Notes: generated by a model not told the origin, from the sequence alone. Counted from the first letter of the stretch, positions 9,451 to 53,787 are shown. The stretch is DNA of 64,000 nucleotides from an uncultured Gammaproteobacteria bacterium (GCA_965231125.1 OZ246414.1:81739-145738); one strand, 5' to 3'. Translations and numbers: made by a program.

Positions 9451-9484
9451 AAGTTCAGCCATTATACCAGAAAAATAAATTAAC

Positions 9485-9513
9485 TTGACTAGACAAGCAA
9501 GCAGTAGTATTAT
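9485..9513 (+). promoter_or_regulatory. sigma-70-type promoter TTGACT-N17-TATTAT for the GC-rich ORF
   Basis: TTGACT 9485-9490, 17-nt spacer, TATTAT 9508-9513. Confidence 0.45.
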
Positions 9514-9568
9514 TTGTTCCACAAGGACAGAGGTTTGTTTGGTCGGGCAAAAAGGAAGGAAGGTGCAC

Positions 9569-10051
9569 ATGAAACTCCGAGGAATCTTGACGATGCTATT
9601 CGCGATGTTCGCTTTCGCGCTCACCATCGTCGCGGCTCTCGCCGGTACGAGTGCTTCGTACGCGGTGCCGGCAACACAAGGCATCAAGACGACAAGCCAC
9701 CGACGCAGCTTGCTGGCAACGCTGCTGTTACCTGTAGCGTTCCTCGCAGGTCTACTGCTGACAATCACCAACATCAACGTGACGACGTCAACCGACACAC
9801 CGACGGACACACCGACCGCAAAACACCGCAGATGGGGCCTGTTCGCTCTGATCACTGGAGCAATCGGCGCTCTCATGCTGCTGTTACGACTGTCGACAAC
9901 CGGCACCGACGATCGAGTTCCGATCGAACGTCTGCAAACGCACCTTGACCAGAGCAGGTCGGGCGCGGGGACGAAGGGCGACGGCGACGTTCATCACAAA
10001 GAGGTCAACTACACGACTCCTGTTCCGGTAGCGGCTCCCGCCGGCACGTGA
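9569..10051 (+). CDS. GC-rich membrane/secreted protein (160 aa, unknown function)
   Basis: ATG 9569 preceded by ggaaggaagg. Signal-like MKLRGILTMLFAMFAFALTIVAALA, two further TM segments and a TDTPTDTPT repeat. Composition visibly GC-richer than the neighbours. Confidence 0.5.
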   Translation: MKLRGILTMLFAMFAFALTIVAALAGTSASYAVPATQGIKTTSHRRSLLATLLLPVAFLAGLLLTITNINVTTSTDTPTDTPTAKHRRWGLFALITGAIGALMLLLRLSTTGTDDRVPIERLQTHLDQSRSGAGTKGDGDVHHKEVNYTTPVPVAAPAGT

Positions 10052-10215
10052 ACATCGACGATCGGTACGTAAGCGCTCCTTTCCTTCCTTTCCGGTCGGA
10101 ACTGAGGCGCTCTAGCTAACTACTTAACCCGCTGGTTATTAAGTAGTTCAGTAACCAAGAACCAGCAAGTTTTCATCAGGACGTCCTGGCCCGACCACCA
10201 ACCTCGTCCTGTCTC

Positions 10216-10256
10216 AGCCCACCTTGTGTTTTCACCAGGTGGGCTTTACTTTTTTA
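10216..10256 (+). terminator. terminator hairpin closing the GC-rich insert (overlaps the Nudix stop)
   Basis: agcccacct / aggtgggct 9-bp stem followed by ttactttttt. Confidence 0.55.
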
Positions 10257-10859: not shown

Positions 10860-10860
10860 T

Positions 10861-10950: not shown

Positions 10951-10958
10951 CTAATATT

Positions 10959-11029
10959 GTCCCAGTAGCTCAGTGGAAAGATCGCTACGCGCTCTGCGAC
11001 CACTTCGTAGTCTAAAAGCGCAAAAACAT
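10959..11029 (+). pseudogene. tRNA-like 5' fragment fused to the dispersed repeat (not a functional tRNA)
   Basis: gtcccagtagctcagtggaaagatcgc mimics the acceptor and D-arm of the adjacent tRNA-Arg(CCG) (gtccctgtggctcaatggatagagcac). It continues as acgcgctctgcgacc... with no T-arm. Confidence 0.45.
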
Positions 11030-11105: not shown

Positions 11106-11123
11106 CTACCTTCTTAATATCAT

Positions 11124-22076: not shown

Positions 22077-23255
22077 CTAATTTGAGAATCCGGTAGTTCC
22101 AGTAAGAATAGTAAAGTAGATTTTTGAGACAGGTAGACCAGTAAGTAATGGGTAGTAAAAAGCAAACAGCCCAAAGCACGAAATTATAAACCCCGCAAGT
22201 AAAAACTTTTTCCCCTCAAAATTCTCTTCTATCATTTTACTAAGTAAAATTACCCCAAACGGCAGCGCTGGGAGCAGATAATACTGTAGAGTGTTGTGGT
22301 AAGCGAAAAACCAAGGGAGCCAAAAGCAGGCAAAGGCTCCCAGCAAAAAGAGCTTTTCAGACGTAAAGTCTCTTTTTTTTATCACCAAAATAATTGCCCC
22401 CAGAATTCCCCAAAAAATGGCGGGGTTAAAGAGAAAAATAACGCTGCGGACTGTGTTTCCGACAGTTTGACCCAAATAAGGAAGCGGTGGATCCAAAAAC
22501 CAAAGCCAGGGAGGATAACCCAAGTTGTCTTTGGATTTTAGAAAAAGATGGTAATTAGCCATTTGCCACTGCAGGTGAAAAAGGCTGTCAAGAGTGTGGT
22601 TTTTTAAATAAAAACTATACGAGGCGAAGTAGACTAACAAAACAACTGTTATTAACTGAGCAATTTTCAACAGGGAACGGGGTTTCTTCTTAAGAAGATA
22701 AAATCCCAAAGCAAAAATTAGTAAAAATAGACCGCTCCATTTTGACGATATTGCCAGCCCAAAGAAAAACCCGCTTAATAATAAATCTTTGGAACTTTCG
22801 CTTTTAAGAAATTTCCAAAAGAAATAGCCAGCTGCCAGGCTAAAAGCAGCCACGTAAATTTCGATAGTACCGAGCCGTGAACTTACAAACCAACCAAACT
22901 CGGCTGTTAAAAAGAGGCTTGCCAAAACTGGAATAAACTTTCCGCCAAACATTTTTTCCGCCAGCAGGTAAATAAATACGACCCCCAAACTCCCGACTAA
23001 AACTTCTGGTATTCGCCAACCCCAAACGTTGTCACCAAAAACATGGATACTTGCCGCCATAAAAAGTTTTGCGACTGGCGGGTGTTGGAAATTAGCTAAA
23101 AAATCCCCGTGCAGGTAGGCACGGGCCGCCGGTATGTAAAAAGCGCCCTCGTCAAAATAAGCGCTTTGGGGAGAATTTAGTAGAAAAAGTTTCGTCAGAA
23201 AGTTAAAGAGAAAAATCAGCGTAAGGAATACAAAGTCAAAACGAGCAAATCTCAT
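22077..23255 (-). CDS. polyprenyl-phosphate-dependent glycosyltransferase (GT39/PMT_2, ArnT-like)
   Basis: 392 aa, about 10 TM segments. First-loop YFDEGAFY acidic motif typical of PMT/ArnT-type enzymes. Confidence 0.65.
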   Translation of the reverse strand: MRFARFDFVFLTLIFLFNFLTKLFLLNSPQSAYFDEGAFYIPAARAYLHGDFLANFQHPPVAKLFMAASIHVFGDNVWGWRIPEVLVGSLGVVFIYLLAEKMFGGKFIPVLASLFLTAEFGWFVSSRLGTIEIYVAAFSLAAGYFFWKFLKSESSKDLLLSGFFFGLAISSKWSGLFLLIFALGFYLLKKKPRSLLKIAQLITVVLLVYFASYSFYLKNHTLDSLFHLQWQMANYHLFLKSKDNLGYPPWLWFLDPPLPYLGQTVGNTVRSVIFLFNPAIFWGILGAIILVIKKRDFTSEKLFLLGAFACFWLPWFFAYHNTLQYYLLPALPFGVILLSKMIEENFEGKKFLLAGFIISCFGLFAFYYPLLTGLPVSKIYFTILTGTTGFSN

Positions 23256-26364: not shown

Positions 26365-26431
26365 GGCAGGTGTATTTAAATTCTATCCTTTGATAGCTTT
26401 AAAAACAATCCTTATCAAGAAGGTGTCCTTA

Positions 26432-26537
26432 GCTAGCCATTAAGATGGCTAGCACAGGATTCGGGAGTACCCGAATCACTTGGATTTGGTTACGGAGAAT
26501 CCTTAGTCCAAAGGACGCGGGACACTTTAAGTGTCCC
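26432..26537. repeat. hairpin cluster containing the left copy of the 33-bp inverted repeat
   Basis: Four consecutive hairpins: 26432-26453 (9-bp perfect stem), 26456-26503 (aggattc/gaatcct outer stem), 26506-26516, 26519-26537 (gggacac/gtgtccc). The 33-mer 26465-26497 is the reverse complement of 33337-33369 (32/33). Confidence 0.6.
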
Positions 26538-26549: not shown

Positions 26550-26558
26550 TGCTATAAT
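26550..26558 (+). promoter_or_regulatory. extended -10 promoter TGcTATAAT for the GC-rich lipoprotein gene
   Basis: TG 26550-26551, TATAAT 26553-26558, about 52 nt upstream of ATG 26611. Confidence 0.45.
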
Positions 26559-26610: not shown

Positions 26611-27501
26611 ATGAAAAGGCTGCTGCCACTGGCAGCGATAACGCTTTTGGTTGTTCTGGCTTACGCTTGCGGAGCTAAGGCCAGTACGCTAAAGAGCAAC
26701 ACTAACGCAGCTTCTGGCCTAGAAGCACAAATAACGCCTTGGGAAAAAGCTCAAGACGTGGCGAATGTTTCGCCAGAGATCACCAAAGCAGAGCTTGGTG
26801 ATGGAGCAGAGCTTGCAAACGAAATTTCGTTTGCAACTCTACGTCCGTTTTACCTAGCTCAATTCACGGGACTATCCTACGACTCCAATTACCAGTGGTC
26901 CGATTGGAGTTCCGATCCGCAAGGACAGCAGTTGGCCAGTGAAATCGAGCAAGAAGGGGTGGCGAGTAAACAAGAAACGCTGGACGGTTTGTACGCATCT
27001 AGTTTCATCCGCTACCATACCGGTACACTGAGCTGGGATGGGACTTCGCTTGGTGCTTGCCCACCAGGACCGCAGCATTTGGTGATTATCACCACAATCG
27101 TGTTCGGGCAAGCCGAAGGGGCCGCTTCCTTCTTCAACAATATTGTTCTACCGGAAGACGACGGTCTGAAGGGCCAGGTGGAGGCTCACCCTACTAACGG
27201 TACCACCGGGTTCGCTTGGTTCGACGAGCAAGAGAAGCAAAACACTTGTCTCTTGCCGGTCCAAAACGATGGGATGGTGGAGACTCACTACATAACCTAC
27301 CCAAGAAAGCAGAGTATTGCCTGGGTAGTCACTGGTACTTTTGTGATCAGAGTGGTAGAGACACTCGGCACATCAACAACAGCCAATCTAACTACCAACA
27401 CTGGTGAGTCCTTTAATCCAGACCCGAACCACTCTGCTGGCAATTACGCTAGCGATCAGGAAACGGCACTGAGATCGGCTTTACCGGAATATTTCCAGTA
27501 A
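26611..27501 (+). CDS. GC-rich putative lipoprotein (296 aa, unknown function)
   Basis: ATG 26611 with GAAGGAGGAG SD. MKRLLPLAAITLLVVLAYAC is lipobox-like. The upstream-extended ORF start at 26545 is unlikely. Confidence 0.55.
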   Translation: MKRLLPLAAITLLVVLAYACGAKASTLKSNTNAASGLEAQITPWEKAQDVANVSPEITKAELGDGAELANEISFATLRPFYLAQFTGLSYDSNYQWSDWSSDPQGQQLASEIEQEGVASKQETLDGLYASSFIRYHTGTLSWDGTSLGACPPGPQHLVIITTIVFGQAEGAASFFNNIVLPEDDGLKGQVEAHPTNGTTGFAWFDEQEKQNTCLLPVQNDGMVETHYITYPRKQSIAWVVTGTFVIRVVETLGTSTTANLTTNTGESFNPDPNHSAGNYASDQETALRSALPEYFQ

Positions 27502-27504: not shown

Positions 27505-27537
27505 AAAGCGGTTCGAAATCACATCGAACCGCTTTTT
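27505..27537 (+). terminator. rho-independent terminator of the lipoprotein gene
   Basis: aaagcggttcga / tcgaaccgcttt 12-bp stem plus T-run. Confidence 0.7.
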
Positions 27538-27539: not shown

Positions 27540-27568
27540 TTGACAAATAAACTCGGCATCTATAAAAT
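27540..27568 (+). promoter_or_regulatory. TTGACA-N17-TAAAAT promoter, -10 ends 7 nt before the ATG (leaderless-type)
   Basis: TTGACA 27540-27545, TAAAAT 27563-27568, ATG 27576, no SD. Confidence 0.55.
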
Positions 27569-27575
27569 TGAATTA

Positions 27576-29270: not shown

Positions 29271-29353
29271 CTTCGCCAGCAATACCACTAGTTGCACCAT
29301 CCTGATATAATTCAAGTCACGGGAAATACTGACCTGACGCTAAAGGAGAGGTT

Positions 29354-29542
29354 ATGGTAAAAATAATATCCTTCCTATTAGGTCTCCAACGAGGTGGTTT
29401 ACTTTGGTCCCTGCTGGCTCAGCCTGATGGAGTTCTTCGCAGGTTAGCCAAATCGCTTCTGCGAATTGGTAGTTTTCGAAGAAAACGACAGATACCAGCA
29501 ATACCGCCAGACCCTTCACAGACACGCAGGATCCGAAACTAG
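29354..29542 (+). CDS. possible small basic protein (62 aa)
   Basis: AAAGGAGAGG SD 2-3 nt from the ATG and an extended -10 TGaTATAAT at 29312-29320. No homology recognised, so it could be non-coding. Confidence 0.3.
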   Translation: MVKIISFLLGLQRGGLLWSLLAQPDGVLRRLAKSLLRIGSFRRKRQIPAIPPDPSQTRRIRN

Positions 29543-29603
29543 GCAAAAGAAAAGGGCCGGTTCGTACATTAAGCATTTCTGCTTATTGCACTTACCGGCC
29601 CTT
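29543..29603 (-). terminator. terminator of the 1111-aa gene
   Basis: On the minus strand, aagggccggt / accggccctt 10-bp stem (32-nt loop with inner agca/tgct stem) followed by ttcttttg. Confidence 0.5.
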
Positions 29604-29609
29604 CGCAAC

Positions 29610-33399: not shown

Positions 33400-33817
33400 C
33401 TCTGGGTGACAAATTTCTTATCAACCAGAGCCCACCTTCGGGGTCCTATGAAGGGACACCTCAACTCGGAGGTGGCTCTGGATTATTTAGTTTAATTTTA
33501 AGTTCGCCCTTACTCATTTTTTCTAGCCTCTACTGACTGGCCGAATTTTAGCATAACTTAGCTTAAATGTCAACTATAAGTCATTTTGTAACTTCGAAAC
33601 CTGCGAGCTCTTGGTTTCTCAGGTACTCTCACGTCTCGCGCTAGGCGTCTTAACGCCTAGCTAAGAGCGCATCGGTTTTTATTCGCGCAGTACGATACAG
33701 TTTGACTCGGTTGCTTTTAGCCTCCCCATGAGCCATAATAATCCCTACAATAGTCGTAAAAAGCTATTTTTCGGCGAAGGATCAGCGAAGCGAGCCGAAG
33801 TATTGTAACCAAAAGTT

Positions 33818-34342
33818 ATGCAACAGCATCCTGTCCCACAGAACATAACAAGTTTTGAATTTAAGCTAGTTGGGTTTCTGACGATTAAGCAATTCGGCTA
33901 TCTTGCCGCTGCCGGAATTTTTTCCTTTGTCTTTTTCATTTCTCCAATACCGACCCTTTTAAAAACTATCGTTATTACTCCTTTTGCCGCAGCCGGACTT
34001 GCCTTTGCTTTTGCTAACATAAACGGTCTCTCGTTTGACAAGTGGATCGTTGCCTTTATTCACTCGGTCTATTCCCCGTCAAGAAGGGTTTGGCACAAAG
34101 TGCCGAAGGAGATAAGTTTTCTCGCGCCAAATTTTTCCTACTATCTCAAGCGGCCGCCTACCCAACAAAAAATTGCCAGTGGCGATCGGACTCGTTTAGA
34201 AAAATATCTTGCGCAGTTGCGAAACCAGCGTTTTAATTCTAATCTCGATGTTTTTGAGGAAATGCGCCTTTCAAAAATTGACTTTAGGGCGACTGTTCCT
34301 CACTTTACAACCGTAGACTCCCAAAGGGATGAAGGCGACTGA
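33818..34342 (+). CDS. PrgI-like (VirB3 analogue) membrane protein
   Basis: 174 aa. The N-terminus HPVPQNITSFEFKLVGFLTIKQFGYLAAAG followed by two TM segments is the pattern I associate with PrgI family proteins of Gram-positive-type T4SS. Confidence 0.55.
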   Translation: MQQHPVPQNITSFEFKLVGFLTIKQFGYLAAAGIFSFVFFISPIPTLLKTIVITPFAAAGLAFAFANINGLSFDKWIVAFIHSVYSPSRRVWHKVPKEISFLAPNFSYYLKRPPTQQKIASGDRTRLEKYLAQLRNQRFNSNLDVFEEMRLSKIDFRATVPHFTTVDSQRDEGD

Positions 34343-35825
34343 GATGGCAGAACCCAACCAAGAAAAGACAGCGGCATATTTTCCTGAGATACCGACAGAT
34401 TTGCCGGAGAACGTCCCGTCTTATCCTGGCAAAAATCTACCCCGCGCCTATAAACCGGCGGCACCCTCCCGCGACGTTACTCACGGGCTGTTGGAGGGGA
34501 CGCGGAGTTTTGCCTCGGAAGTAAATTTTGATCCAGTTACAACTTTAAACCTGCCGGATAAAAACGTCTACGTGCGGCCGGTTAAAAACCTAAAATCCCG
34601 GGATATCACTCCATTACCTCTCAACGGCCCATTAAGTTTGCCTTCCAAAGGGGAGAAGATTTTTGATCTCTCGGCCGACTTTCAACGTCAGATTGAAGCG
34701 CGACTTTCTTATATTATGAATCAGTATGAAACCAAATCTAACCCTAACTTACCTGATTTAGCTCCACCACCTAACCTTAGTCCGGAGACTCCCAGTCCGG
34801 CGGAAACTGCTCCTGCCGCTGCCCAACCTGGGCAAGCTGTCCAGCGCCCGGTTATCAGCCCAGAAATTAGCGCGGCGGCCCAAGTCCCTCAAAGAGCACT
34901 GGAGACGCCACCTGCTCAACCCCAGAGTCCGGTTCCATATCAATCAGCCAATCGGTTACCTTCTGACCAAGAAGCTCTGCTTGATATTCTAACTAGACTA
35001 GAGAGGCAAATCCGAGAGTTGGAGATTCAAAAAAACGCCGCCCAAGCAAGGGTTGTTGAGCTAACCAACAAATATCAATCGCAAATTTTGGCGCTGGCAA
35101 AAAACCAAGAAGGTTTTAGCTCTGTTATTGAGCAGCTGAAAAATCAACTTGTCGAGGAGCAAAAAAAGAAACTGGCCGGGGACGCCATGGTCAACACTAT
35201 TAAAACAGAATCCCAAGTCGAAATTCAAAGACTAAAGATTGAAAGAGACTCTCTTCTTTCCCAGCTAAAAGAGGCCCAGACCAAAATTTCTGATCTACAA
35301 CAGACCGCGTCTAAATTCCCAGTTTCAGAAATACAAGTATCCGAACTTAAGGCCCGCCTGGCCCAGGTGGAGAGGGAAAGATCTGATTCCGAGGAAAAGA
35401 TAATGAAGTTGCAAAGTTTGGTGGACGATTTAAGGACGGGTTCCCGTGTGGCTGAGGAAGAAAGACACGTTATCACTGCTCAGGCGGTACCAGTAGAGTC
35501 TCTGACCACGGCAAAAATCGTGTCCCCGGCCCCAGCGTTTGGAAAAATGGCGCCTCCACTTACCACCATTCCTAACGTTGTTAACGGTATCATCAAAGAT
35601 CGCGCTGGCCTGCTCTTAACTGATGTCATAATTGTCGTAAAAGATGAGGCGAGTAACCCTGTAAGGGCCTTAAAATCGAATAAAATTGGTCAATTTGCTA
35701 TCTCAACACCACTACCAACCGGCACTTACACTATGGAACTTGAAAAAGAGGGTCAAGAATTTGATCTTGTCCAAATAAAATTGGAAGGAAAAGTAATGCC
35801 ACCCGTGGAAATAAAATCTCGGTAA
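34329..35825 (+). CDS. Pro-rich / coiled-coil protein with C-terminal carboxypeptidase-regulatory-like beta-sandwich
   Basis: 498 aa. Pro-rich spacer, coiled coil of about 150 aa, C-terminal VNGIIKDRAGLLLTDVIIVVKD..GQFAISTPLPTGTYTMELEKEG. Alternative start at ATG 34344. Confidence 0.5.
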   Translation: MKATEMAEPNQEKTAAYFPEIPTDLPENVPSYPGKNLPRAYKPAAPSRDVTHGLLEGTRSFASEVNFDPVTTLNLPDKNVYVRPVKNLKSRDITPLPLNGPLSLPSKGEKIFDLSADFQRQIEARLSYIMNQYETKSNPNLPDLAPPPNLSPETPSPAETAPAAAQPGQAVQRPVISPEISAAAQVPQRALETPPAQPQSPVPYQSANRLPSDQEALLDILTRLERQIRELEIQKNAAQARVVELTNKYQSQILALAKNQEGFSSVIEQLKNQLVEEQKKKLAGDAMVNTIKTESQVEIQRLKIERDSLLSQLKEAQTKISDLQQTASKFPVSEIQVSELKARLAQVERERSDSEEKIMKLQSLVDDLRTGSRVAEEERHVITAQAVPVESLTTAKIVSPAPAFGKMAPPLTTIPNVVNGIIKDRAGLLLTDVIIVVKDEASNPVRALKSNKIGQFAISTPLPTGTYTMELEKEGQEFDLVQIKLEGKVMPPVEIKSR

Positions 35826-35847
35826 GGGCAGCTGGTTTCAAAACCTT

Positions 35848-36564
35848 ATGGCCAACAAAAAAATTTACACAACTCAAGAACATTTAGATATCGATGACGT
35901 TAGAGACAATTTGGCCGTTCTAAAAAACGGGGAGGCGGTCGCGATTATTCAGACAAACGCGATCAACTTTGACCTTTTAAGTGAAAGGGAGCAGGACGCA
36001 ATGATCTTTGCCTACGCTGGCTTGCTAAACTCCCTCACGTTTCCGATACAAGTTTTGGTGAGATCAAAACGTTTAGATCTTTCCAATTATTTACAGTATC
36101 TTGCTCTTTACCGGCGGCAAGCCAAAAACCCACTTTTGGTTGCCCAAATGGATAAGTACGCCTCTTTTATTAAGGATTTAGTTGCAAGGAATGAGGTTTT
36201 GGATAAGAGATTTTATATAGTTGTGCCTTATCTAGCTATTAGCCTTACTCAATTAAAAAGTCTAGGCGGCGGCCTTTTAGGTAAAAAACCGCGAGGCACA
36301 AATCGCTGGAGCACCATTGAGAAAGCTAAAGTTAATCTTGAGCCAAAAATCGAACACATCGTTAAACAGCTTGCTCGGATTGGAATTAAAGCCAAACAGC
36401 TTACCACTGAAGAATTAGTCGAGCTTTTTTACGACTACTACAACCCCGAGGTAGCCAGGGAACAGAAAGCAGCTCTTTCCACCTCGGAGTACACAACTCC
36501 AATTGTGGAACCGGCGGTAAGCCCAATTTTAGAGCAGTCACAAGGAGACACGAATGCAACTTAA
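35848..36564 (+). CDS. hypothetical T4SS-associated protein (238 aa)
   Basis: The ORF overlaps the VirB4-like gene start by 11 nt. No family recognised with confidence. Confidence 0.45.
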   Translation: MANKKIYTTQEHLDIDDVRDNLAVLKNGEAVAIIQTNAINFDLLSEREQDAMIFAYAGLLNSLTFPIQVLVRSKRLDLSNYLQYLALYRRQAKNPLLVAQMDKYASFIKDLVARNEVLDKRFYIVVPYLAISLTQLKSLGGGLLGKKPRGTNRWSTIEKAKVNLEPKIEHIVKQLARIGIKAKQLTTEELVELFYDYYNPEVAREQKAALSTSEYTTPIVEPAVSPILEQSQGDTNAT

Positions 36565-38428
36565 TCCTTTTAAAAAAAGGGAAAAGGTTGACCCGGTAGA
36601 AGCAGAACTGGCTCAAACCCGAGCAAAAGTGGCCAATGTTCTCGGTAGGGGAATGACAGATGTAAAGGACGTGATTGCTCCACCGGCCATTGAAATCGAC
36701 TTTGATTACTTAAGAATTGGTGAGTTGTACTTCCGCACATTATTTATCACTGGCTACCCTCGCTTTGTCGGTGCTAATTGGCTGGCTCAAATTATAAATT
36801 TTGACCATACCCTTGATATTTCCTTCTACTACTACCCCGTTGAATCGAAGGGAATACTTGACGATCTGCGGCGAAAAATCGCCGAGATGGAGGCTACGAT
36901 TGAAAGCGACCTAGAGGCAGGTAGAGTCTTAGATCCTGGGGTCCGAATTGCTTTAGAGGATGCTCAAGCCCTCCAGGAACAGCTAACCGCTGGTATCGAA
37001 CGCTTCTTCCAGTTTTCTTTCTACATAACCATACCCGCTTACTCCTTAGAAGAACTCAACTCTGTTACCAAACAAGTAGAAGCGGCCCTTGGGTCTCTTT
37101 TGGTCGTCTCCAAGCACGCGACGCTACAACAAGAACAGGCTTTTCAATCTGTCTTACCTACCTTCACCGATAAACTTTTGGTGACTCGGAACATGGACAC
37201 GACTTCTTTGGCTACAACTTTTCCTTTTGTTTCTAGCGAGCTAACTGCTAATGAAGGGGTTATGTACGGCATTAACGAACACAATGGATCTTTGGTCATT
37301 TTTGACCGCTTTAGCCTGGAAAATGCAAACTGCGTCGTCTTTGCAAAATCCGGAGCCGGAAAAAGCTACTTAGTTAAACTGGAGACTTTGCGTCAATTAA
37401 TGTTTGGCACTGAAGTTTTAGTTATCGATCCAGAAAACGAGTATCAAGCCTTAGCCGAGGCGATTGGAGGAGAATATATGGAATTTAAGGCCGAGTCCGG
37501 AATAAAAATAAACCCCTTCGATCTTTCCGGTATCTACCAGCAAGGAGAAAACGAACTAGGTTTAAAAATTTTGGCTCTTCACTCCCTTTTCCGAATTATG
37601 ATGGGTCAGCTAACGCCAATGGAAGATGCTGTTTTAGACAGAGCCTTGGTTGCTACCTATAAATTAAAGGGTATAACTCCAGACCCGGCCACCCAAACAA
37701 GACAGCCGCCGATTATGGAGGACCTTTACAATATCTTACTTAACATGGCGGAGCCGGAAGCTAAGGGAATGGCAACTCGTCTGGAAAAATTCATTCGGGG
37801 TTCTTTATCCGGTGTATTTAATGAGCAAAGCAATATTAACCTTAGAAATACCTTTACTGTTTTTTCTATCCGTGATATGGAGGACGAACTGCGCCCAATT
37901 GCAATGTTCATCGTCTTAGACTTTATCTGGACGAGGATCAAAAGAAATCTTAAAAAGCGGGTTCTTGTGGTAGACGAGGCTTGGTATTTAATGAAGTACC
38001 CTGACTCAGCTGCTTTCATGTACTCCATCGCAAAAAGAGCCCGTAAATACTTTTTAGGGGTGACAACAATAACTCAAGACGTCGAAGACTTTCTTTCTGG
38101 AGATTACGGTAAGGCAATTGTTACTAACTCATCTATGCAATTTCTATTAAAGCAGTCACCGGCGGCGATAGATGCAGTTACTGATATTTTTTATTTGTCC
38201 GAGGGGGAGAGAAATTTACTGCTTTCTGCCGAGATCGGCGAGGGCCTTTTCTTTGCTGGCCCTAACCACGTGGCTATTAGGGTTCAGGCTGCACCACACG
38301 AACACGGGTTAATTACTTCAAACCCAGCTGAGCTTGTTGAGAGTAACCAGCCCTCAAATATTTCCGCGCCAAACAGCCCCCCGACAGAAGAAACTACTTA
38401 TCCGGGGTCTACCCCAAACCAACTCTAA
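36554..38428 (+). CDS. VirB4/TraC/PrgJ-like type IV secretion ATPase
   Basis: 624 aa. Walker A FAKSGAGKSY, Walker B RVLVVDEAW, and a VirB4-like N-terminal domain (FRTLFITGYPRFVGANWL). Confidence 0.85.
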   Translation: MQLNPFKKREKVDPVEAELAQTRAKVANVLGRGMTDVKDVIAPPAIEIDFDYLRIGELYFRTLFITGYPRFVGANWLAQIINFDHTLDISFYYYPVESKGILDDLRRKIAEMEATIESDLEAGRVLDPGVRIALEDAQALQEQLTAGIERFFQFSFYITIPAYSLEELNSVTKQVEAALGSLLVVSKHATLQQEQAFQSVLPTFTDKLLVTRNMDTTSLATTFPFVSSELTANEGVMYGINEHNGSLVIFDRFSLENANCVVFAKSGAGKSYLVKLETLRQLMFGTEVLVIDPENEYQALAEAIGGEYMEFKAESGIKINPFDLSGIYQQGENELGLKILALHSLFRIMMGQLTPMEDAVLDRALVATYKLKGITPDPATQTRQPPIMEDLYNILLNMAEPEAKGMATRLEKFIRGSLSGVFNEQSNINLRNTFTVFSIRDMEDELRPIAMFIVLDFIWTRIKRNLKKRVLVVDEAWYLMKYPDSAAFMYSIAKRARKYFLGVTTITQDVEDFLSGDYGKAIVTNSSMQFLLKQSPAAIDAVTDIFYLSEGERNLLLSAEIGEGLFFAGPNHVAIRVQAAPHEHGLITSNPAELVESNQPSNISAPNSPPTEETTYPGSTPNQL

Positions 38429-42160: not shown

Positions 42161-42392
42161 AAGATGGCAATTAATGACGTCCTCCCCGAGCCAAGTCGGG
42201 GTTGCCGACGTTTTCTCGCCCCGATAAATCGGGCCTCGAAAATAAATCACGCGAGCGTGATGGGCCGAGTTAAGGACTCGGTAGGCAGGGGGTAGATCTT
42301 TCAAAAGAGGTAAAACTATATTAGGTAAAAGTACCGAGACGGTCAAGAAGGACATACTACTACCTTTCTGTATCAGTAGATTCTGGGCGCAT

Positions 42393-47547: not shown

Positions 47548-47576
47548 TTGACAAATCCTTTAAGTTGTGTTAAAAT
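47548..47576 (+). promoter_or_regulatory. TTGACA-N17-TAAAAT promoter of the 47.6-48.5 kb GC-rich unit
   Basis: TTGACA 47548-47553, TAAAAT 47571-47576. Confidence 0.5.
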
Positions 47577-47582
47577 ACACCC

Positions 47583-47825
47583 ATTAACAATTGAAAATAG
47601 ATCGCTAACGCGCTCTGCGTCGCTAGCGCTCCTAATGGTTACAAGGTAAAAACTTTTAAAGGCACTTTGTAACTGGAGTTGAAGTTATAGCTAACTGTCA
47701 TTACGGAAACGTCCTGAAGTCTAGAACAATTCGAGTCCAGTTACCAGGTGCCTTTGTGTATCTAGGCGGTACGTCTTGCTGACCCGGCAAGCTATCGTTA
47801 AACAAATTATGGGTATGGAGGAACG
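47583..47825 (+). promoter_or_regulatory. long (~245 nt) structured 5' leader containing a copy of the dispersed repeat
   Basis: Repeat copy 47594-47638. Long-range stem aaaggcac..taactgga (47658-47677) / tccagtta..gtgccttt (47735-47754). SD atGGAGGa 47816-47822. Confidence 0.4.
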
Positions 47826-48152
47826 ATGTCAGTCAGACACCCCCTGTCAGACGTCGAAAGTTTCGAAAAGAAAGGTGTTAGGTATGTTCGGGTTTGCCAC
47901 GTAGGAAAGGGATCATTCCACTTCGAAGTCTACAGACGAATCAAACGAAGTGGGAGGCTCCATATGATTATCAGACCAGAGGCATACTCTCCTATCAGTG
48001 GGGAACTTCGCCCTTCTTCATCAGCGGTGTTCGTGGCTGAAGCGCAAGAGGATCTGTTCTGGCGTATGGTGCTCCCTTTCACAGACGCTGTAAACAGGTT
48101 GCCCGACGACGTGTCAATACAATTCATAGGCTGGACAAAGTATGGTGTGTAG
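47826..48152 (+). CDS. GC-rich hypothetical protein (108 aa)
   Basis: ATG with GGAGGA SD. No family recognised. Confidence 0.45.
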   Translation: MSVRHPLSDVESFEKKGVRYVRVCHVGKGSFHFEVYRRIKRSGRLHMIIRPEAYSPISGELRPSSSAVFVAEAQEDLFWRMVLPFTDAVNRLPDDVSIQFIGWTKYGV

Positions 48153-48264
48153 TGGTAATAATCCACAATCAAGCTTTGCTTGATCCCCAAATCCTAAGCA
48201 AATCTCACATACGGTGTCGTCGCTGTCGTTAGCGGCTGACAAAATAGTCAGCTAGAAAGGACGA

Positions 48265-48480
48265 ATGGTGATGGATCAGTTCACGCGGTTAGTTCTCGGG
48301 TGTATTGGCACGGTGATAGTTGCCATTGCTACACTTTGGCTGATCGATGGCATCTTCTGGACGCAAGTCTCGCCAAGGGCACTCATAATCGCGCCGGCGG
48401 TGATCGTTCTAGCGGTTGGAGGAGTCATGGTTCTAACCGCTGTGCTAACAGGAGACAGGGCACCGAGGGTACGACTGTAG
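48265..48480 (+). CDS. GC-rich small 2-TM membrane protein (71 aa)
   Basis: Two hydrophobic helices. AAAGGA SD. Alternative start at ATG 48271. Confidence 0.4.
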   Translation: MVMDQFTRLVLGCIGTVIVAIATLWLIDGIFWTQVSPRALIIAPAVIVLAVGGVMVLTAVLTGDRAPRVRL

Positions 48481-48503
48481 AAGGAGTAAAATCGGTGCCA
48501 CAG

Positions 48504-48546
48504 AAAGACCACAAAGCGAGTAATCGCAGCGTGGTCTTTTTATTTT
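48504..48546 (+). terminator. terminator of the GC-rich unit, overlapping the valS stop codon
   Basis: aaagaccac / gtggtcttt stem followed by ttatttt. Confidence 0.6.
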
Positions 48547-50753
48547 GGCCACGCGGAAACCATGATGGAATCATCCTTTTTTAGTCCGTTAGGACGCAGA
48601 GCGCGAAGCGATCTATTTGGTAACTTCTGCCAAAGATCTTCGGTTATGTACGGCATGAAGGGGTGGAGTAGTCGCAAAGATTCTTCAAGGACTTTTTCCA
48701 AAACCGGCTGAGCTTCGTCTCGTCGGGATTTTGAACTTTCAATATATTTATCGGCAAAGCGGTGCCAGACGAAATCGTAAAGCTCTCCGACCGCCTGACC
48801 AAAACGATAATTCTCGATTGCTTTGGTTACAATTTCTCTTGTTTTCTCCAATTCCTCCAAAATCCATTTGTCATCCAGGTGAGTGGGTGTAGGGTGTAGG
48901 GTATAGGGTTTAGGGTTTTTTGATTCGGGTTCATTCGAGTTATTATTCGCGTCCATTAGAATATACCGGCCGATGTTCCAGAGTTTATTAGTGAAATTGC
49001 GCATTCCTTTTATTTTATGTTCGCCAAGGTTAGCATCATTGCCTGGACCAGTTCCGAAGACGAGGGCCATCCGGACTGCGTCCGCACCGTATTTTTCCGC
49101 AACATCCAGCGGATCAATGACATTATTTTTACTCTTGCTCATTTTTTGACCCTTTTCGTCGCGAACCAGGCCATGTAAGTAAACCGTTTCAAAAGGGACT
49201 TTACCGGTCACATAAAGACCAAGCATGATCATGCGCGCGACCCAGAAGAAAAGGATATCGTAGCCAGTTTCCATTACAGAGGTTGGGTAAAATTTCTTAA
49301 AATCGGCTTCATCTTTTTGTCCGTAACCCAAAGTGGTAAACGGCCATTGCCCCGAGGAAAACCAAGTATCGAGGGTGTCCGGATCCTGTTCAAACTTGGT
49401 TGAGTCGCAATTTGCGCACCTAGTCGGGGGTTCAACTGAGACAAACTCCCCATTTTTCATTTTGCATTCTTCATTCTTCATTTCCTGACAGTAATAAACT
49501 GGCAGGCGGTGGCTCCACCACAGTTGCCGGGATATACACCAATCGTGAATATTCTCCATCCAATTAAAATAAATTTTTTCGAAACGGGGTGGAATGATTT
49601 TGATTTTGTTACTCTTAACCGCTGCCAGGGCGTCTTTAGCCAAATTCTTGCCGCTCTTACCGGTTTTGTTGACAGCAACAAACCATTGTTTGGAAACTAG
49701 AGGCTCGACGACAGTATCAGAGCGTTCGCAGACACCGACACTAGTCTTGTGATGCTGCGTTTTTTCCAACAGGTCCAGTTTTTCCAGATCGGTAACGATT
49801 TGTTTGCGGGCGGCGTATTTATCCAAACCAGAGTACTTACCTGCCTCTTTGGTCATTTTGTCGTCAAAACCGATGACTTGAATTTGGGCTAGTGAGTGAC
49901 GCTGTCCGACTTCATAATCGTTCGGATCGTGTGCTGGTGTTATCTTCACCGCTCCACTACCGAACTTTGGGTCAACGTAGGAATCTTTAATAATAGGAAT
50001 CTCCCGGTTCATCAACGGTAGGATGGCTGCCTTTCCAACTAAAGTCTTGTAACGTTTATCGCCCGGGTTAACCGCGACCGCTGTGTCGCCCAGCATTGTT
50101 TCCGGTCGGCTCGTGGCTACAGTTACAGTTTCTTTAGAATTCTTAACTGGATAACGGATAAACCAAAGGTTCGATTCTTTTTCTTTGTGAAGCACTTCGA
50201 GATCGGAAAGTACAGTCGCGCAGCGCGGACACCAATTAACCATTCGGCTGCCGCGGTAAATTAACCCGTCGTCATAAAGGTCTTTGAAGGTTTGGTAAAC
50301 TACTTTGGAGATTTCTGGATCAAGAGTAAATTTTTCGCGAGACCAATCTAAGCTAAATCCCATTGCCCGTAGTTGGTCGTACATTTGCTTTTTATTTTCT
50401 TGGGTGAATGCGTAAGTTTGCTTGAAGAATTCTTCCCGGCCAAGGTGGTGGCGAGTCTTACCTTGCCTTTCCAAAACCTCCCGTTCGTAAACGACTTGGG
50501 TTTGGATGCCGGCGTGATCTGCTCCTGGCAGCCACAAAGTCGAATCCCCAAGCATCCGGTGGTAGCGGATTAAAATATCCTCGATGACGTACATGGCGTG
50601 GCCGATGTGGAGCCGACCGTTGGCGTTTGGCGGAGGTAAAATAATTGAATAAGGTTTGCCTTTAGGATTGGTCTCTGGCTTGAAAAACTCCCCCTTTTCC
50701 CAAAGGGAATACCATTTGCTTTCAACTTGTTTATGCTCGTAAACTTTTTCCAT
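48540..50753 (-). CDS. valS: valine--tRNA ligase (short form without C-terminal coiled coil)
   Basis: 737 aa. PPPNANGRLHIGHA (HIGH), KMSKSKNN (KMSKS). Carries the repeat-encoded insert NRSLRALRPNGLKK near the C-terminus. Confidence 0.95.
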   Translation of the reverse strand: MEKVYEHKQVESKWYSLWEKGEFFKPETNPKGKPYSIILPPPNANGRLHIGHAMYVIEDILIRYHRMLGDSTLWLPGADHAGIQTQVVYEREVLERQGKTRHHLGREEFFKQTYAFTQENKKQMYDQLRAMGFSLDWSREKFTLDPEISKVVYQTFKDLYDDGLIYRGSRMVNWCPRCATVLSDLEVLHKEKESNLWFIRYPVKNSKETVTVATSRPETMLGDTAVAVNPGDKRYKTLVGKAAILPLMNREIPIIKDSYVDPKFGSGAVKITPAHDPNDYEVGQRHSLAQIQVIGFDDKMTKEAGKYSGLDKYAARKQIVTDLEKLDLLEKTQHHKTSVGVCERSDTVVEPLVSKQWFVAVNKTGKSGKNLAKDALAAVKSNKIKIIPPRFEKIYFNWMENIHDWCISRQLWWSHRLPVYYCQEMKNEECKMKNGEFVSVEPPTRCANCDSTKFEQDPDTLDTWFSSGQWPFTTLGYGQKDEADFKKFYPTSVMETGYDILFFWVARMIMLGLYVTGKVPFETVYLHGLVRDEKGQKMSKSKNNVIDPLDVAEKYGADAVRMALVFGTGPGNDANLGEHKIKGMRNFTNKLWNIGRYILMDANNNSNEPESKNPKPYTLHPTPTHLDDKWILEELEKTREIVTKAIENYRFGQAVGELYDFVWHRFADKYIESSKSRRDEAQPVLEKVLEESLRLLHPFMPYITEDLWQKLPNRSLRALRPNGLKKDDSIMVSAWPK

Positions 50754-50794: not shown

Positions 50795-52000
50795 ATGGAT
50801 TTTACGGATTTTTCCTTAGGAATAAATTACTGGCCCCAAAAAGAGGCCTTCTCCCTTTGGAAAAAATTTGATGCAGGAATCTTGAAAAGAGACTTTGAAC
50901 TGATCAAAAGTTTTGGTATGGACTGTGTAAGGATCTTTTTAGTCTGGGAAGATTTTCAGCCTTCCCCAAACAAAGTTTCCGCAGAGAAACTTAACTATCT
51001 TGTAACGAGCGCAAATATTGCTGCCGAAGCCGGTCTTCAAATTATCCCGACATTTTTCTGTGGGCATATGTCGGGAGCAAATTTTTTACCTTCTTGGATT
51101 TTGGGTAAAAGGGTCGGAGGCGGTAGATTTCCCATAGTCTCCCACGGTCATGTCGGTCTCTATGAAATTAAGAATTTTTATGAAGATAAAGAGTTGCAGC
51201 AGAGCCAAAAACTGCTTTTAAAAGAAGTAGCGGCAGTCTTAAAAAACCACCCGGCGATAAAAGCTTGGGATTTGGGCAATGAGCCTTCAGTGTATATCAC
51301 TCCGAGGACCGGCGAAGGCGCGGAACGTTGGCTGGCGGAAATGACCGGAACTTTGCGAGGGGTTGATGCGGATGTTCCAATTACAATTGGTACCCACATG
51401 GAGGATTTAATAAAGGACAACAAAATAGCGTTTGAAGCGATCGGTAAGTATTGCGACTTCTTAGTAATGCACGGTTACACTGTCTATAGCCCCGTCGCAA
51501 TTGATATTTACGACAGACGGTTCATATTGTTTTTGGTTGAATTAACAAAATGGTTAGGCGGCAAGAGAGTGCTACTAGAAGAGTTTGGTTTCCCGACGAG
51601 TGTCGACAGTGCCCAAATAAAACTTGCCAAAGAAAAGGGCCTAGTACTACTTTCCGACAGTGAGGGAGAAAAAACTGTCCAGTTTACCCAAGATTTGTTC
51701 GAGGATCTTTATGAAGAGGGTTGCCTAGGGGCCTATTGGTGGTGCTTTGCCGATTATGATAAATCGGCTTGGTCAAAGCCACCCTTGGACCAAAGAATCC
51801 ACGAGAGGTTCTTTGGCATTAAAAGAGTCGATGGAACCATAAAGCCAGTAGCCAGTGTTTTTAAAAAATTTGGGAAAAGACTATATAAGGATCGGCAACT
51901 AGAAAGTTTCTGGCGCACGCAAGACCGCGAAGACTACTTTAGTAATCCTGAAAAAAGTTTCAAAGACCTTTGGGAGAAATTTAAAAATCGGAAAGATTAG
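50795..52000 (+). CDS. clan GH-A glycoside hydrolase (GH5-like TIM barrel)
   Basis: 401 aa, no signal peptide. WDLGNEP (acid/base-type NEP) and LLEEFGFP (nucleophile-type EFG) motifs. Confidence 0.55.
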   Translation: MDFTDFSLGINYWPQKEAFSLWKKFDAGILKRDFELIKSFGMDCVRIFLVWEDFQPSPNKVSAEKLNYLVTSANIAAEAGLQIIPTFFCGHMSGANFLPSWILGKRVGGGRFPIVSHGHVGLYEIKNFYEDKELQQSQKLLLKEVAAVLKNHPAIKAWDLGNEPSVYITPRTGEGAERWLAEMTGTLRGVDADVPITIGTHMEDLIKDNKIAFEAIGKYCDFLVMHGYTVYSPVAIDIYDRRFILFLVELTKWLGGKRVLLEEFGFPTSVDSAQIKLAKEKGLVLLSDSEGEKTVQFTQDLFEDLYEEGCLGAYWWCFADYDKSAWSKPPLDQRIHERFFGIKRVDGTIKPVASVFKKFGKRLYKDRQLESFWRTQDREDYFSNPEKSFKDLWEKFKNRKD

Positions 52001-53028
52001 AAAAGTAATCCAGGGTCAGTTTTCACCTTTTCCCAAGGTATGGGTATGAAGTTGAAAAAGGCGGCGGAAGCAACCATCGCCCCATTATCCACAGAAAGTT
52101 TTGGGTTCGAAGAAATTACTCGACCAGAAAAAGATTGAGTCATCTTTTCTCTTAGCCTTTGGTTGGCGGCTACTCCACCAGCCAAAAGAATTTCTTTAAC
52201 ACCAGTAATTTCAGCAGCTTTAAGAGTTTTATTTACAAGAGAGTCCACAATAGCTTCTTGAATACTTGCGGCTAGATCGGCAGTCTGTTTTTGGGTTAGT
52301 TCCTGATCAGAATTTTTCCCTTTAACAGTGTTAACCAAATTAACAACGGCGGTTTTCAAACCAGAAAAAGAAAAATCTAGATCGCTAGAATCTGCAAGAG
52401 GTCTCGGCAAACGGAAAGCGTTTGGATCGCCGTTCCCACCCGCTTCCTGAATAGCCGGACCGCCGGGATAGGAAAGACCGAGCGTTCGGGCGGTTTTATC
52501 AAACGCTTCGCCAGCGGCATCGTCTCGGGTGCCTCCCAACCATTTAAATTTACCGTGACCTTTCATTAAAACTAATTCAGTGTGCCCGCCGCTGACAATT
52601 AAGGAAAGGTTTGGAAAAGTCGGGGGCTTGGGATTATCTAACCAGTTTGCATAAATATGCCCGATAAGGTGGTTAACCGGAACCAGCGGCTTATTCCAAG
52701 AATACGCGAGACTTTTAGCAGTTTCCACCCCTACTAGTAAGGAGCCAACTAGGCCAGGACCATAAGTGACGGCAACTGCGTCCACACTGGATTTATAGTT
52801 ATCAATACCTTTTTTATCTGTCCCAATCTTTAAATATTCAAAAACGGCATCCAAAACCGCTGTCATCGATTTGACCTGTTCTCGGGCGGCAACTTCGGGA
52901 ATAATACCACCAGTTTTAGCATGAATGGGTAAGGAAGAATAGGCAATATTGGATAGTATTTTTACTCCGTCTTCAACAACAGCGGCGGCCGTCTCATCGC
53001 AGCTAGTTTCGATTCCTAAAATCTTCAT
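51997..53028 (-). CDS. tsaD: tRNA N6-adenosine threonylcarbamoyltransferase TsaD
   Basis: 343 aa: ILGIETSCDETAAAV, GPGLVGSLLVG, VSGGHTEL, GGVAAN. Confidence 0.9.
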   Translation of the reverse strand: MKILGIETSCDETAAAVVEDGVKILSNIAYSSLPIHAKTGGIIPEVAAREQVKSMTAVLDAVFEYLKIGTDKKGIDNYKSSVDAVAVTYGPGLVGSLLVGVETAKSLAYSWNKPLVPVNHLIGHIYANWLDNPKPPTFPNLSLIVSGGHTELVLMKGHGKFKWLGGTRDDAAGEAFDKTARTLGLSYPGGPAIQEAGGNGDPNAFRLPRPLADSSDLDFSFSGLKTAVVNLVNTVKGKNSDQELTQKQTADLAASIQEAIVDSLVNKTLKAAEITGVKEILLAGGVAANQRLREKMTQSFSGRVISSNPKLSVDNGAMVASAAFFNFIPIPWEKVKTDPGLLF

Positions 53029-53155
53029 AAATCCTACTGAGCATTATACAAAATTAATAGAAATCTAAAAAGGTCAAGAAAATTGCTCGCGTGGGTTATA
53101 ATAGCTAAAACCGCATCGTAAGACTGAGAGATCAGAGAAAGGAGAGCGTAGGTAC

Positions 53156-53746
53156 GTGGGATATTCGCAGAGAGTGGCGGTATGGGTTTTGGTCTCGGTT
53201 TTTCTGACGGCGTGTTTTTCAGGGACGCAAGTAAGATCCAGCCAGCTGGGCGGGACACTCCAACCCACACTATTGCCAGAACAAACTCCTAAACAAGAGT
53301 TGGGTGTGGCAGTGTCGGTTCCACCTCAAAGCTCTTCACTCACAATTCCACCCGAGACCAAAGTAGTGAGAGGAAGTTGTAGCTCGGATGGAGAATGTCA
53401 TTGGTACAATTTTTACTGGGCGCCAACCCACGAAGCAGTGGTTCAGGAGGGAGAATCGCAAATCAAGGTGGAGCACGAGCTTTGCCATGCCCACCAGCAT
53501 TGGTCGATAAACGGTGGCGCACTGCTACCGCCAGACGACTACGACTTGCATACCTGGTACGACACGGCCGAAGGCAAGAGTTTTTTCGGGGCCGCCTCCG
53601 GTCTTTCTTGGCTCTGGAGTCACAGTGCGGTCAATGATCTCGAAGATTTTGCCTGGACGTGTGCTTACTGGTACCTAGGTCCAGTGTATCTGAACAAGAT
53701 TAGTCCGCAGCGTTACGATTGGGCAGCAGCCAATCTAACTAAGTAA
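53156..53746 (+). CDS. GC-rich putative lipoprotein with HExxH motif
   Basis: GTG start with AAAGGAGAG SD. Lipobox-like VFLTAC. KVEHELCHAHQH contains HExxH. Trp/Tyr-rich. Confidence 0.5.
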   Translation: MGYSQRVAVWVLVSVFLTACFSGTQVRSSQLGGTLQPTLLPEQTPKQELGVAVSVPPQSSSLTIPPETKVVRGSCSSDGECHWYNFYWAPTHEAVVQEGESQIKVEHELCHAHQHWSINGGALLPPDDYDLHTWYDTAEGKSFFGAASGLSWLWSHSAVNDLEDFAWTCAYWYLGPVYLNKISPQRYDWAAANLTK

Positions 53747-53750
53747 ATCC

Positions 53751-53787
53751 AACCGCCCTCTCAATTTTGAAAGGGCGGTTACTTTTT
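53751..53787 (+). terminator. rho-independent terminator
   Basis: aaccgccct / agggcggtt stem followed by actttttt. Confidence 0.7.

Follow-up and report, generated by a model that had tools for sequence, protein, structure and literature searches.

We analysed a 64,000-nt stretch of DNA deposited as an uncultured Gammaproteobacteria bacterium (GCA_965231125.1 OZ246414.1:81739-145738; hereafter the window), in which genes at five places are GC-richer than the rest. The initial annotation had read these places as one family of cassette-like acquisitions with a common insertion history or mechanism. Our results favor, with fair rather than full confidence, five separate units (four single genes, A, B, C and E, and the two-gene unit D) that have no shared insertion mechanism, with gene C in a conserved, variable slot of a type IV secretion system (T4SS) locus and B as a later addition. 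The slot, its promoter and a leader of ~590 nt are conserved across classes, and all occupants belong to a single rare, highly divergent family of ~900-1170 amino acids (aa) that is enriched in GC at third codon positions (GC3).

GC-rich coding sequences in the window

The window has a GC content of 44%. As baseline we used its 55 other open reading frames (ORFs), which have a GC3 of 0.399 (sd 0.040, maximum 0.484). The ORFs compared with this baseline are the following.

A, 9569-10051 (+): GC3 0.677, z 6.9
B, 26611-27501 (+): GC3 0.519, z 3.0
C, 29610-32945 (-): GC3 0.619, z 5.5; GC 0.543
D1, 47826-48152 (+): GC3 0.523, z 3.1
D2, 48265-48480 (+): GC3 0.583, z 4.6
E, 53156-53746 (+): GC3 0.528, z 3.2
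F, 59620-59886 (+), an 88-aa ORF: GC3 0.461, z 1.5; no compositional outlier

The abrupt shifts to GC-richer sequence noticed at five places are therefore real (GC3 0.52-0.68, z 3.0-6.9), and the weaker case suspected at 59536-59947 (F) is withdrawn. The excess is confined to coding sequence: promoters, leaders and terminators have a GC content of 0.37-0.47, like other intergenic DNA, and the 3' flank of A (GC 0.53) is the sole GC-rich flank. Relative synonymous codon usage (RSCU) of the five units correlates with that of the native set at r -0.34 to +0.15, as compared to 0.43 to 0.75 for native genes of similar size. Codons shifted in GC-rich versus native genes include TTC (0.72 vs 0.26), ATC (0.52 vs 0.20), AAG (0.56 vs 0.26) and TTA (0.03 vs 0.23), and the encoded proteins have more Arg (7.3% vs 3.8%), less Lys (4.4% vs 7.6%) and less Ile.

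All five units sit between housekeeping genes, and A adjoins a tRNA gene (tRNA-Ser, 9361-9450), as first described. A GGAGG-type Shine-Dalgarno (SD) sequence and a hairpin terminator with T-run are readable at all five, again in agreement with the first description; its promoter-like element per unit was found in near-consensus form for A (10/12), C and D (both 11/12 plus TG), and as an extended -10 element for B. None of the unit ORFs, D2 included, has an above-threshold match in Pfam, NCBIfam, PHROGs or PADLOC, which bears out that they lack recognisable homologues in such libraries.

Chimeric assembly or contamination would fit the abrupt change of composition and nothing else, and we consider it wholly negligible. 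The junctions recur in independent JGI and Logan contigs at 99.9% identity with all units present, so the arrangement is not an assembly artefact; the slot of C recurs in nine unrelated assemblies, and the C protein is matched residue for residue on NCBI, JGI and Logan contigs. These same-population contigs (99.9% identical) carry no presence/absence information and hence are silent on the age of the units.

Gene C is an ancient resident of a variable slot

The neighbours of C include a secretion cluster of conjugation type, with genes for PrgI, a TraC-like protein, VirB4 and several T4SS pilins, arranged as follows.

33818-38428 (+): T4SS-like cluster with prgI (33818-34342), a gene for a CarboxypepD_reg protein, a TraC-like gene and virB4 (36554-38428), from Pfam matches
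38.4-42.5 kb: recF-dnaN-dnaA/oriC after the cluster, the order being recF-dnaN-dnaA-rnpA out to 42.9 kb
29610-32945 (-): C, the 1111-aa GC-rich gene that occupies the variable slot (from GC/GC3 and synteny in 9/9 loci)
29545-29601 (-): intrinsic terminator of C, GGGCCGGT...ACCGGCCC then TTTTCTTTT, read from sequence
27540-29270 (+): gene of the '576-aa family', conserved right-hand border of the slot, 28 homologues

Pfam found PrgI (PF12666) in the window, and DUF87/AAA_10/P-loop_TraG, TraC-like and T4SS_pilin matches on the identical contig L081. The genes rnpA, dnaA, dnaN and recF are at 38.4-42.9 kb, and the minimum of cumulative GC skew is at ~38-40.5 kb. VirB4, PrgI/VirB3 and VirB2-like pilins are thus clustered and adjoin dnaA/dnaN, as in the MPF-FATA-like T4SS locus of Patescibacteria. 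According to Quinonero-Coronel et al. 2025 (PMC12102498), a T4SS locus beside oriC is a trait of this phylum, and the T4SS-like system is reported as essential to epibiotic growth of Saccharimonadia. The closest named relatives of the genes neighbouring C are Candidatus Woykebacteria and Saccharimonadales, by which we take the window to be a piece of a Patescibacteria (candidate phyla radiation, CPR) chromosome.

A word-indexed search with C returned one homologue (P0002, 46% identity), which lies at the same site on contig L084, where the gene order is rnpA, dnaA, dnaN, recF, virB4, TraC-like, hypothetical, prgI, a gap of ~0.8 kb and the C homologue. Identities between the window and L084 are 62% for DnaA, 81% for VirB4 and 46% for the slot protein, and the L084 homologue is GC-richer still than C (GC 0.577, GC3 0.70 vs ~0.40 in its neighbours). 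Using a profile hidden Markov model (HMM) on 1.84 billion representative proteins, we were able to extend the family to 28 members, mostly of 900-1170 aa. C had been described as an orphan without homologue, which is right as to Pfam domains (none in 24 C-family members) and wrong as to relatives. An AlphaFold2 (AF2) model of C (predicted local distance difference test, pLDDT, 77) has no relative in the PDB.

Contexts of relatives were fetched via homologues of the 576-aa gene plus members of the C family, and nine loci were usable: the window, L084, L165 and L170 (Woykebacteria), L168 (Saccharimonadales), L166, L169, L171 and L172. The slot is filled by an ORF of 907-1166 aa in all nine. It follows prgI in 9/9. 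Eight of the contigs are long enough to show its other side, where the 576-family gene comes next and converges on the slot gene. VirB4 identity among the loci is 72-86%. The slot ORFs of L165 and L166 are invisible to C by BLASTP and are linked to it via P0052 (E 3e-30) and P0057 (E 1e-98). With a homologue at the same site in distant relatives (DnaA 62%, VirB4 72-86%), GC-rich throughout, C is an ancient fixture of a conserved slot in the T4SS locus and not a genome-specific insertion, as which it had first been presented.

The GC3 of the slot gene exceeds that of its neighbours by 0.12 to 0.33 in 9/9 loci. Eight of the nine copies share codon usage (RSCU of orthologues correlates with that of window C at r 0.60-0.73), and seven of the eight orthologues correlate negatively with the window background, the exception being L169 (0.07 with window C, +0.39 with the background). 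At conserved residues, the slot copies of the window and L084 use the same codon at a frequency of 0.43 vs 0.37 expected (virB4: 0.40 vs 0.36); synonymous sites are near saturation, and the GC excess is therefore not the decaying leftover of one ancient transfer.

VirB4 sorts the nine loci into three clades with within-clade normalised scores of 80-88. In each clade two slot proteins are recognisably related (scores 35-37, 26 and 17) and the third scores 0-4 against both (0, 2-4 and 0 in the three clades, respectively); the window and L165, for instance, share 85% identity in VirB4 and no detectable similarity in their slot proteins. Since divergence of the slot gene is decoupled from that of its neighbours, the occupant appears to change cassette-like over evolutionary time. 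The pattern agrees with replacement by distant alleles or with strongly episodic divergence, and disagrees with clock-like vertical descent. Slot alleles may be exchanged among lineages from a GC-richer pool, or may be held GC-rich by conversion or selection; the persistent GC excess could come from an imported allele pool, from biased gene conversion or from selection.

We also considered that the slot gene has been inherited vertically throughout and that its protein evolves in very rapid bursts. Its GC-rich usage would then be actively maintained, either by selection (on mRNA stability or structure, or on translation rate via rare codons) or by a recombination hot spot with GC-biased gene conversion. 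Such inheritance agrees with the conservation of position, promoter and leader across classes, with a GC3 that stays high from end to end of C, and with the codon usage common to the family; so does the shifted amino-acid composition (Arg and Lys, as given above), which indicates long exposure to GC pressure. However, recombination would also reach the conserved flanks, and these are not GC-rich. Each VirB4 clade has one unrecognisable slot protein, while another pair keeps 46% at equal VirB4 distance, and the GC3 excess varies between loci (0.12-0.33), as different residence times would give. We therefore hold strict vertical inheritance to be possible and rather unlikely.

In three loci a second GC-rich gene (GC3 0.61-0.70) lies between prgI and the slot gene: L166 6009-7256 (415 aa), L172 6251-7366 (371 aa) and L170 5911-6717 (268 aa). 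The L166 and L172 ORFs are homologous (32-39% identity) and form another family of atypical composition in this locus. Given these extra genes inside the slot of relatives, the locus tends to accumulate such genes.

On the other side of C, 29271-29609 includes ~290 nt between the stop of the 576-family gene and the C terminator. Gene callers differ here, giving a 62-aa (+) or a 74-aa (-) ORF. The start of the 74-aa ORF (29352-29576) is inside the loop of the C terminator, so small ORFs in this region are doubtful, and the region is probably non-coding or a remnant.

A predicted attenuator in the leader of C

The leader of C spans ~590 nt from promoter to start codon. The DNA that separates prgI from the slot gene can be aligned across loci and measures 596-872 nt in the six loci without an intervening gene (L166, L170 and L172 have the extra gene there). 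Its elements in the window are listed below.

33545-33573 (-): promoter, TTGACA, 17 nt, TGCTAAAAT; 11/12 match, extended -10
33461-33517 (-): upstream ORF (uORF) for a leader peptide, MSKGELKIKLNNPEPPPS then stop; comparable uORF in 9/9 loci
33386-33481 (-): whole predicted attenuator
33481-33471 (-): predicted arm a, CCAGAGCCACC, pairs with a'
33436-33425 (-): predicted arm a', GGTGGGCTCTGG, pairs with a or a''
33406-33397 (-): predicted arm a'', CCCAGAGCCC, followed by a T-run at 33396-33386
32946-33385 (-): distal leader with a GTACCTTAACAA-type single-stranded motif, a hairpin and the SD, seen as conserved blocks in alignments
33066-33030 (-): covarying hairpin CCCCTTGGTG...CACCAAAG (3' part also given as CACCAAGGGG), with G-C to A-U double changes
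32961-32955 (-): SD of C, GAGGAGG, in the distal leader

The promoter pattern TATAGnnTTGAC(A/T), 17 nt, TG.TA.A.T is kept in all eight loci that cover the region (L167 is too short). The uORF has 16-21 codons and stops 21-43 nt before arm a', in or beside arm a, in 9/9 loci (the choice of ORF is ambiguous in L169). Its peptides are MSKGELKIKLNNPEPPPS, MIGLVRIENLIPEPPPE, MNEAELRIKKLIIPEPPPW, ...FAQSPPG (twice), ...AQGPPIR, ...TSGGIPI and ...TSEALRMGQ, with a PP or PPP ending in 6/9 loci.

Both the a:a' helix (z -1.9 to -5.9) and the a':a'' terminator (-17 to -31 kcal/mol) fold in 9/9 loci. RNAalifold found five terminator pairs changed on both sides (compensatory), and both pairings are kept by compensatory variants, namely CAAAGCC/GGCTTTGG/CAAAGCCC in L166 and L170 and GGAGG/CTTCT/GGAAG in L168, L169 and L171. 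A covariance model of the switch has the C leader as its sole match in the window (92 bits), with no copy at A, B, D or E; it also matches the nine training loci (by construction) and L081, and nothing in ~1.3 Mb of unrelated control loci. The C leader has no Rfam match.

The leader thus combines mutually exclusive antiterminator and terminator helices, a T-run, and a short uORF that ends in or near the 5' arm, as attenuators do. A riboswitch was considered and rejected: clades differ in the sequence and shape of the inner part of the a:a' helix, and the leader has no Rfam match. Without a conserved core, attenuation by the ribosome is a better fit than a riboswitch that binds a ligand. We infer that expression of C is gated by translation-coupled attenuation, with the following putative direction of regulation. 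A ribosome translating the ~18-codon uORF (with a proline-rich 3' end in six loci) would cover arm a; with arm a covered, a' would pair with a'', followed by the T-run, and transcription would terminate. With arm a free, a:a' would form and RNA polymerase would read through into the slot gene. A more speculative extension, which we put forward with considerable doubt, is that the slot family is an exchangeable T4SS-linked host-interaction effector or specificity factor with a GC-rich allele pool, the synthesis of which would depend on a proline-rich arrest peptide as sensor of the cell's translation state (EF-P or prolyl-tRNA).

B is a lineage-specific addition to the locus

The features of B and of the leader module that it shares with C are as follows.

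26611-27501 (+): B, a 296-aa GC-rich lipoprotein with lipobox LAYAC, between an M23-peptidase-like gene and the 576-family gene
27508-27537 (+): B terminator, hairpin and T-run
26550-26558 (+): extended -10 element of B, TGCTATAAT, downstream of the copy of the C-leader module
33337-33383 (-): C-leader module GCACAGAACGCGAGAGTACCC...GTTACGGAG, kept in L084
26451-26497 (+): copy of the C-leader module upstream of B (47 nt, 89%, blastn E 5.6e-12, z 20)

The M23-peptidase and 576-family genes are divergent neighbours, 96-133 nt apart, in L165, L168, L169, L170 and L171. For L166, the gap on the upstream side of the 576-family gene measures 121 nt, versus 1175 nt in the window, where B with its -10 element, SD and terminator lies inside it. 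Because B is missing from the equivalent gap in the six relatives that reach it, it is a lineage-specific insertion; a search of 5.8 billion proteins returned no homologue besides B itself. B thus joined the T4SS locus later, in this lineage, and brought along a 47-nt piece of the C leader. The module upstream of B resembles a trace left by duplication within the genome, or by recombination with the slot leader, more than a functional part of the B transcript.

A further module, composed of CTTAGCTAG, a variable hairpin, CTAGCGC(A/G) and then GAGAGTAC, is found upstream of the slot promoter in the window (33600-33670, -) and in L170 (leader 136-180), and also upstream of B (26428-26480, +). 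Its hairpin stem differs between copies and stays paired; the module may be a protein-binding site or a transcript-end element.

No common insertion mechanism among the units

Flanks were tested by all-vs-all blastn of intergenic regions and by Smith-Waterman alignment against shuffles with control pairs. The only robust similarity is that between the upstream regions of B and C (z 20). The upstream regions of C and D reach z 4.5 (promoter plus a 14-mer), which is inside the range of control pairs (up to z 4.7). Among the short modules that were said to be shared, GCGCTCT(T)AGCTA has a match also in 20/100 shuffles, and CTTAGCTAG has two or more matches in 10/100. AAATAGATCGCT is over-represented, with three exact copies (one of them inside valS) and five matches in a 1-mismatch search vs 0.28 expected. 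Of the shared flank modules, the 47-nt piece of B and C and AAATAGATCGCT therefore hold up, and the rest are not above chance. AAATAGATCGCT is part of a longer motif of 20 nt, AGATCGCT(N1-2)CGCGCTCTGCG, which occurs three times vs none expected.

10979-10998 (+): copy in a tRNA-like remnant
47599-47619 (+): copy just after the D promoter
48595-48614 (-): copy inside valS

The valS copy is read in frame as part of PNRSLRALRPNGLKKDD, an insert that is not in the nearest C-terminus of valyl-tRNA synthetase (ValRS; L001). Given these three locations, the motif is no marker of cassette borders; a small element that is mobile or prone to recombination, and can sit within coding sequence, may account for it. 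The tRNA-like remnant (10957-11029) resembles a degenerate tRNA-Arg and is flanked by tRNA-Ser(cga) and tRNA-Arg(ccg). Its 5' half has 85% identity to tRNA-Arg(gcg), and it was called by neither ARAGORN nor Rfam. The only inverted pair near a unit, of 20-28 nt around D (47595-47622 and 48590-48618), was tried as transposon ends and rejected, its right arm lying inside conserved valS coding sequence, upstream of the valS 3' end.

We looked for known kinds of mobile elements. The units do not show the multicopy occurrence, terminal inverted repeats and target-site duplication of an insertion sequence (IS) or miniature inverted-repeat transposable element (MITE). They have no shared 3' elements and the ORFs tested have no recombinase domain, as integron cassettes would, and A, beside tRNA-Ser, was found to have neither the direct repeat nor the integrase that a tRNA-targeted island would have. 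Overall, the units showed neither an integrase or transposase nor att-like direct repeats, and no recombination site common to them. The phage or plasmid origin suggested for checking found no support: PHROGs gave nothing above threshold, searches of viral contigs with A, B, C, D1 and E were negative, and so were those of GenBank phages and PLSDB plasmids with C.

A single family of cassette-like acquisitions, with a common mechanism marked by shared flank modules, seems to us improbable in view of these results. All units are GC-rich orphans and monocistronic save the two-gene D, B is a true lineage-specific insertion that shares the 47-nt module with C, and the promoters of C and D are alike, together with a 12-mer. 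But C is ancestral at its own site (9/9 relatives), no recombinase, att/attC-like repeats or target duplications were found, flank similarities beyond B and C are within control noise, no second copy of the leader model occurs in the window, and codon signatures differ among units. What is left of the cassette family is B, an insertion specific to its lineage with a piece of the C leader; the common mechanism is not borne out, C being at the same site in 9/9 loci.

Several points weigh against our own reading of separate units, an exchanged slot allele and an attenuator. No GC-rich donor, phage or plasmid was found to carry any unit gene. The small ORFs correlate with the codon signature of C at r -0.06 to 0.30 (RSCU). 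Allele exchange is deduced from score ratios among nine loci, and episodic fast divergence under vertical descent would look alike. As to the attenuator, its logic is something we infer from sequence: two uORFs have no Pro-Pro end, the uORF of L169 is ambiguous, and full-length folds prefer the terminator in 8/9 loci.

Units A, D and E

The three remaining units are made up as follows.

9485-10255 (+): A unit, GC3 z 6.9, with promoter 9485-9513 (10/12), ORF 9569-10051 and terminator 10216-10255
47548-48546 (+): D unit (two genes), with promoter 47548-47576 (11/12 plus TG), a leader of ~250 nt, D1 and D2
48505-48546 (+): D terminator, overlapping the valS stop, read from sequence
53156-53790 (+): E unit, a 196-aa lipoprotein with lipobox LTAC and a HELCH (HExxH) motif, GC3 0.528
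53750-53781 (+): E terminator hairpin, 14 pairs, then T-run, read from sequence

The A product (160 aa) has a signal peptide and transmembrane segments, and is a membrane or secreted protein; its terminator is common to the convergent NUDIX gene. D1 is a soluble protein of 108 aa, and D2 (71 aa) has two transmembrane helices. The E product may be a small surface zinc peptidase, to judge from its motif; a single-sequence AF2 model of it was unusable (pLDDT 41). Library scans and viral contigs gave no homologues of A and E, and no viral relatives of D1 were found. The sites of A, D and E are the tRNA-Ser/NUDIX, rplY/valS and tsaD/NYN gaps, respectively. An exact look-up of ValRS returned no entry. 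Scans with ValRS of genome and metagenome contigs for the A, D and E sites gave no synteny, the best matches listed being 58% and 52% identical.

Codon usage of A, D and E is non-native and yet unlike that of C, so neither a single donor nor a single shared pressure is indicated. Most likely, A, D1/D2 and E were acquired independently of one another, or else are genes of this lineage that evolve very fast; their products would be envelope or secreted proteins (lipoproteins and small membrane proteins). A related explanation, which we rate as plausible and somewhat short of an even chance, is that A, B, D and E were each acquired independently from GC-richer donors (e.g. host bacteria of the epibionts) at permissive intergenic sites, and are linked to C by chance only. 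Their non-native codon usage and envelope-type products agree with it, as does B, which has no homologue in the clade and is missing from relatives. Against it, 5.8 billion proteins hold no donor homologue of B, viral contigs nothing for A, B, D1 or E, and the flanks (promoters, leaders) are native in composition, with B carrying a native leader module.

The ribosome-binding region of A, AAAAGGAAGGAAGG (9551-9564), is complementary to CCTTTCCTTCCTTTCC (10078-10093) in its own 3' untranslated region, and the two ends could pair and mask the SD site. This complementarity has z 5.2, which we deem no better than control pairs (which reach z 4.7).

Comparison with known systems

As is generally known of trp/his-type attenuators and of SecM/ApdA-type arrest peptides, the 3' end of a short uORF overlaps the 5' arm of an antiterminator, and in trp/his-type attenuation an arm competes with the terminator hairpin and T-run; the C leader resembles them in this. 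Like arrest peptides, its uORF is conserved as a peptide, 6/9 ending in PP or PPP. Unlike trp/his attenuators, it has no runs of regulatory amino-acid codons and no link to biosynthesis; unlike SecM/ApdA-type systems, it has no link to Sec/YidC genes, it controls an uncharacterised T4SS-linked protein, and it is known here from sequence alone.

The slot can also be compared with O-antigen/capsule clusters with JUMPStart/ops and RfaH, again from general knowledge. They share conserved borders and a leader, variable content of non-native GC, and replacement that departs from the species tree. However, those clusters are multigene and AT-rich and use an ops element and a NusG paralogue, neither of which turned up here, no search aimed at them having been made; the C slot holds a single GC-rich gene. 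Integron cassettes and tRNA-linked islets resemble the window units in being small, mostly single-gene intergenic units of foreign composition (A by a tRNA), but the window units come without integrase, attC/att repeats or a shared recombination site, and each has its own promoter.

A close published counterpart is the MPF-FATA-like T4SS of Patescibacteria (PMC12102498), which lacks a relaxase and in which VirB4, PrgI/VirB3, VirB2-like pilins and an enzyme that hydrolyses the cell wall are encoded together next to dnaA/dnaN/recF; this context is exactly that of B and C. In the parts consulted, the paper makes no mention of a large unannotated gene, its text does not contain the term 'GC content', and genes without profile matches are drawn grey; the GC anomaly, variability and leader of such a gene are therefore not described there.

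The slot gene is present in all nine related loci examined, including at least two named Patescibacteria lineages, and is variable, compositionally distinct and hard-wired into the locus. This makes it a concrete candidate for a secreted or host-specificity factor, with a regulatory element that is testable in cultivable relatives. If it were indeed an exchangeable host-interaction factor, it would be a previously unrecognised regulated variable module in the essential secretion system of an epibiont. The family is also a case of atypical GC that outlasts synonymous saturation, which bears on the reading of GC deviation as recent transfer.

Other features of the window

The window carries seven tRNAs and one tmRNA. 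A direct repeat of 300 nt (81% identity; 1056-1355 and 1999-2298) covers two paralogous 90-aa ORFs (1095-1367 and 2038-2310), and the flanks downstream of these ORFs are similar too. A motif of ~36 nt, ATAAAAATTTCTAAC...GGNGCCA, occurs in intergenic positions ahead of genes at 2382-2417, 4003-4038 and 4846-4881, and may be a regulatory or promoter-associated element. A 22-nt repeat (91% identity; flank test z 11.5) is found at 42209-42230 (dnaA-rnpA, oriC intergenic) and 54378-54399 (NYN/NTP-transferase intergenic).

The gene for a PMT-family glycosyltransferase (22077-23255) is whole in the window (392 aa), whereas the JGI contig L081, at 99.95% identity, has it split into ORFs of 238 and 161 aa. 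The 23-kb alignment of the window with L081 has one gap, a candidate cause of the split, which would be either a strain-level frameshift or a sequencing error.

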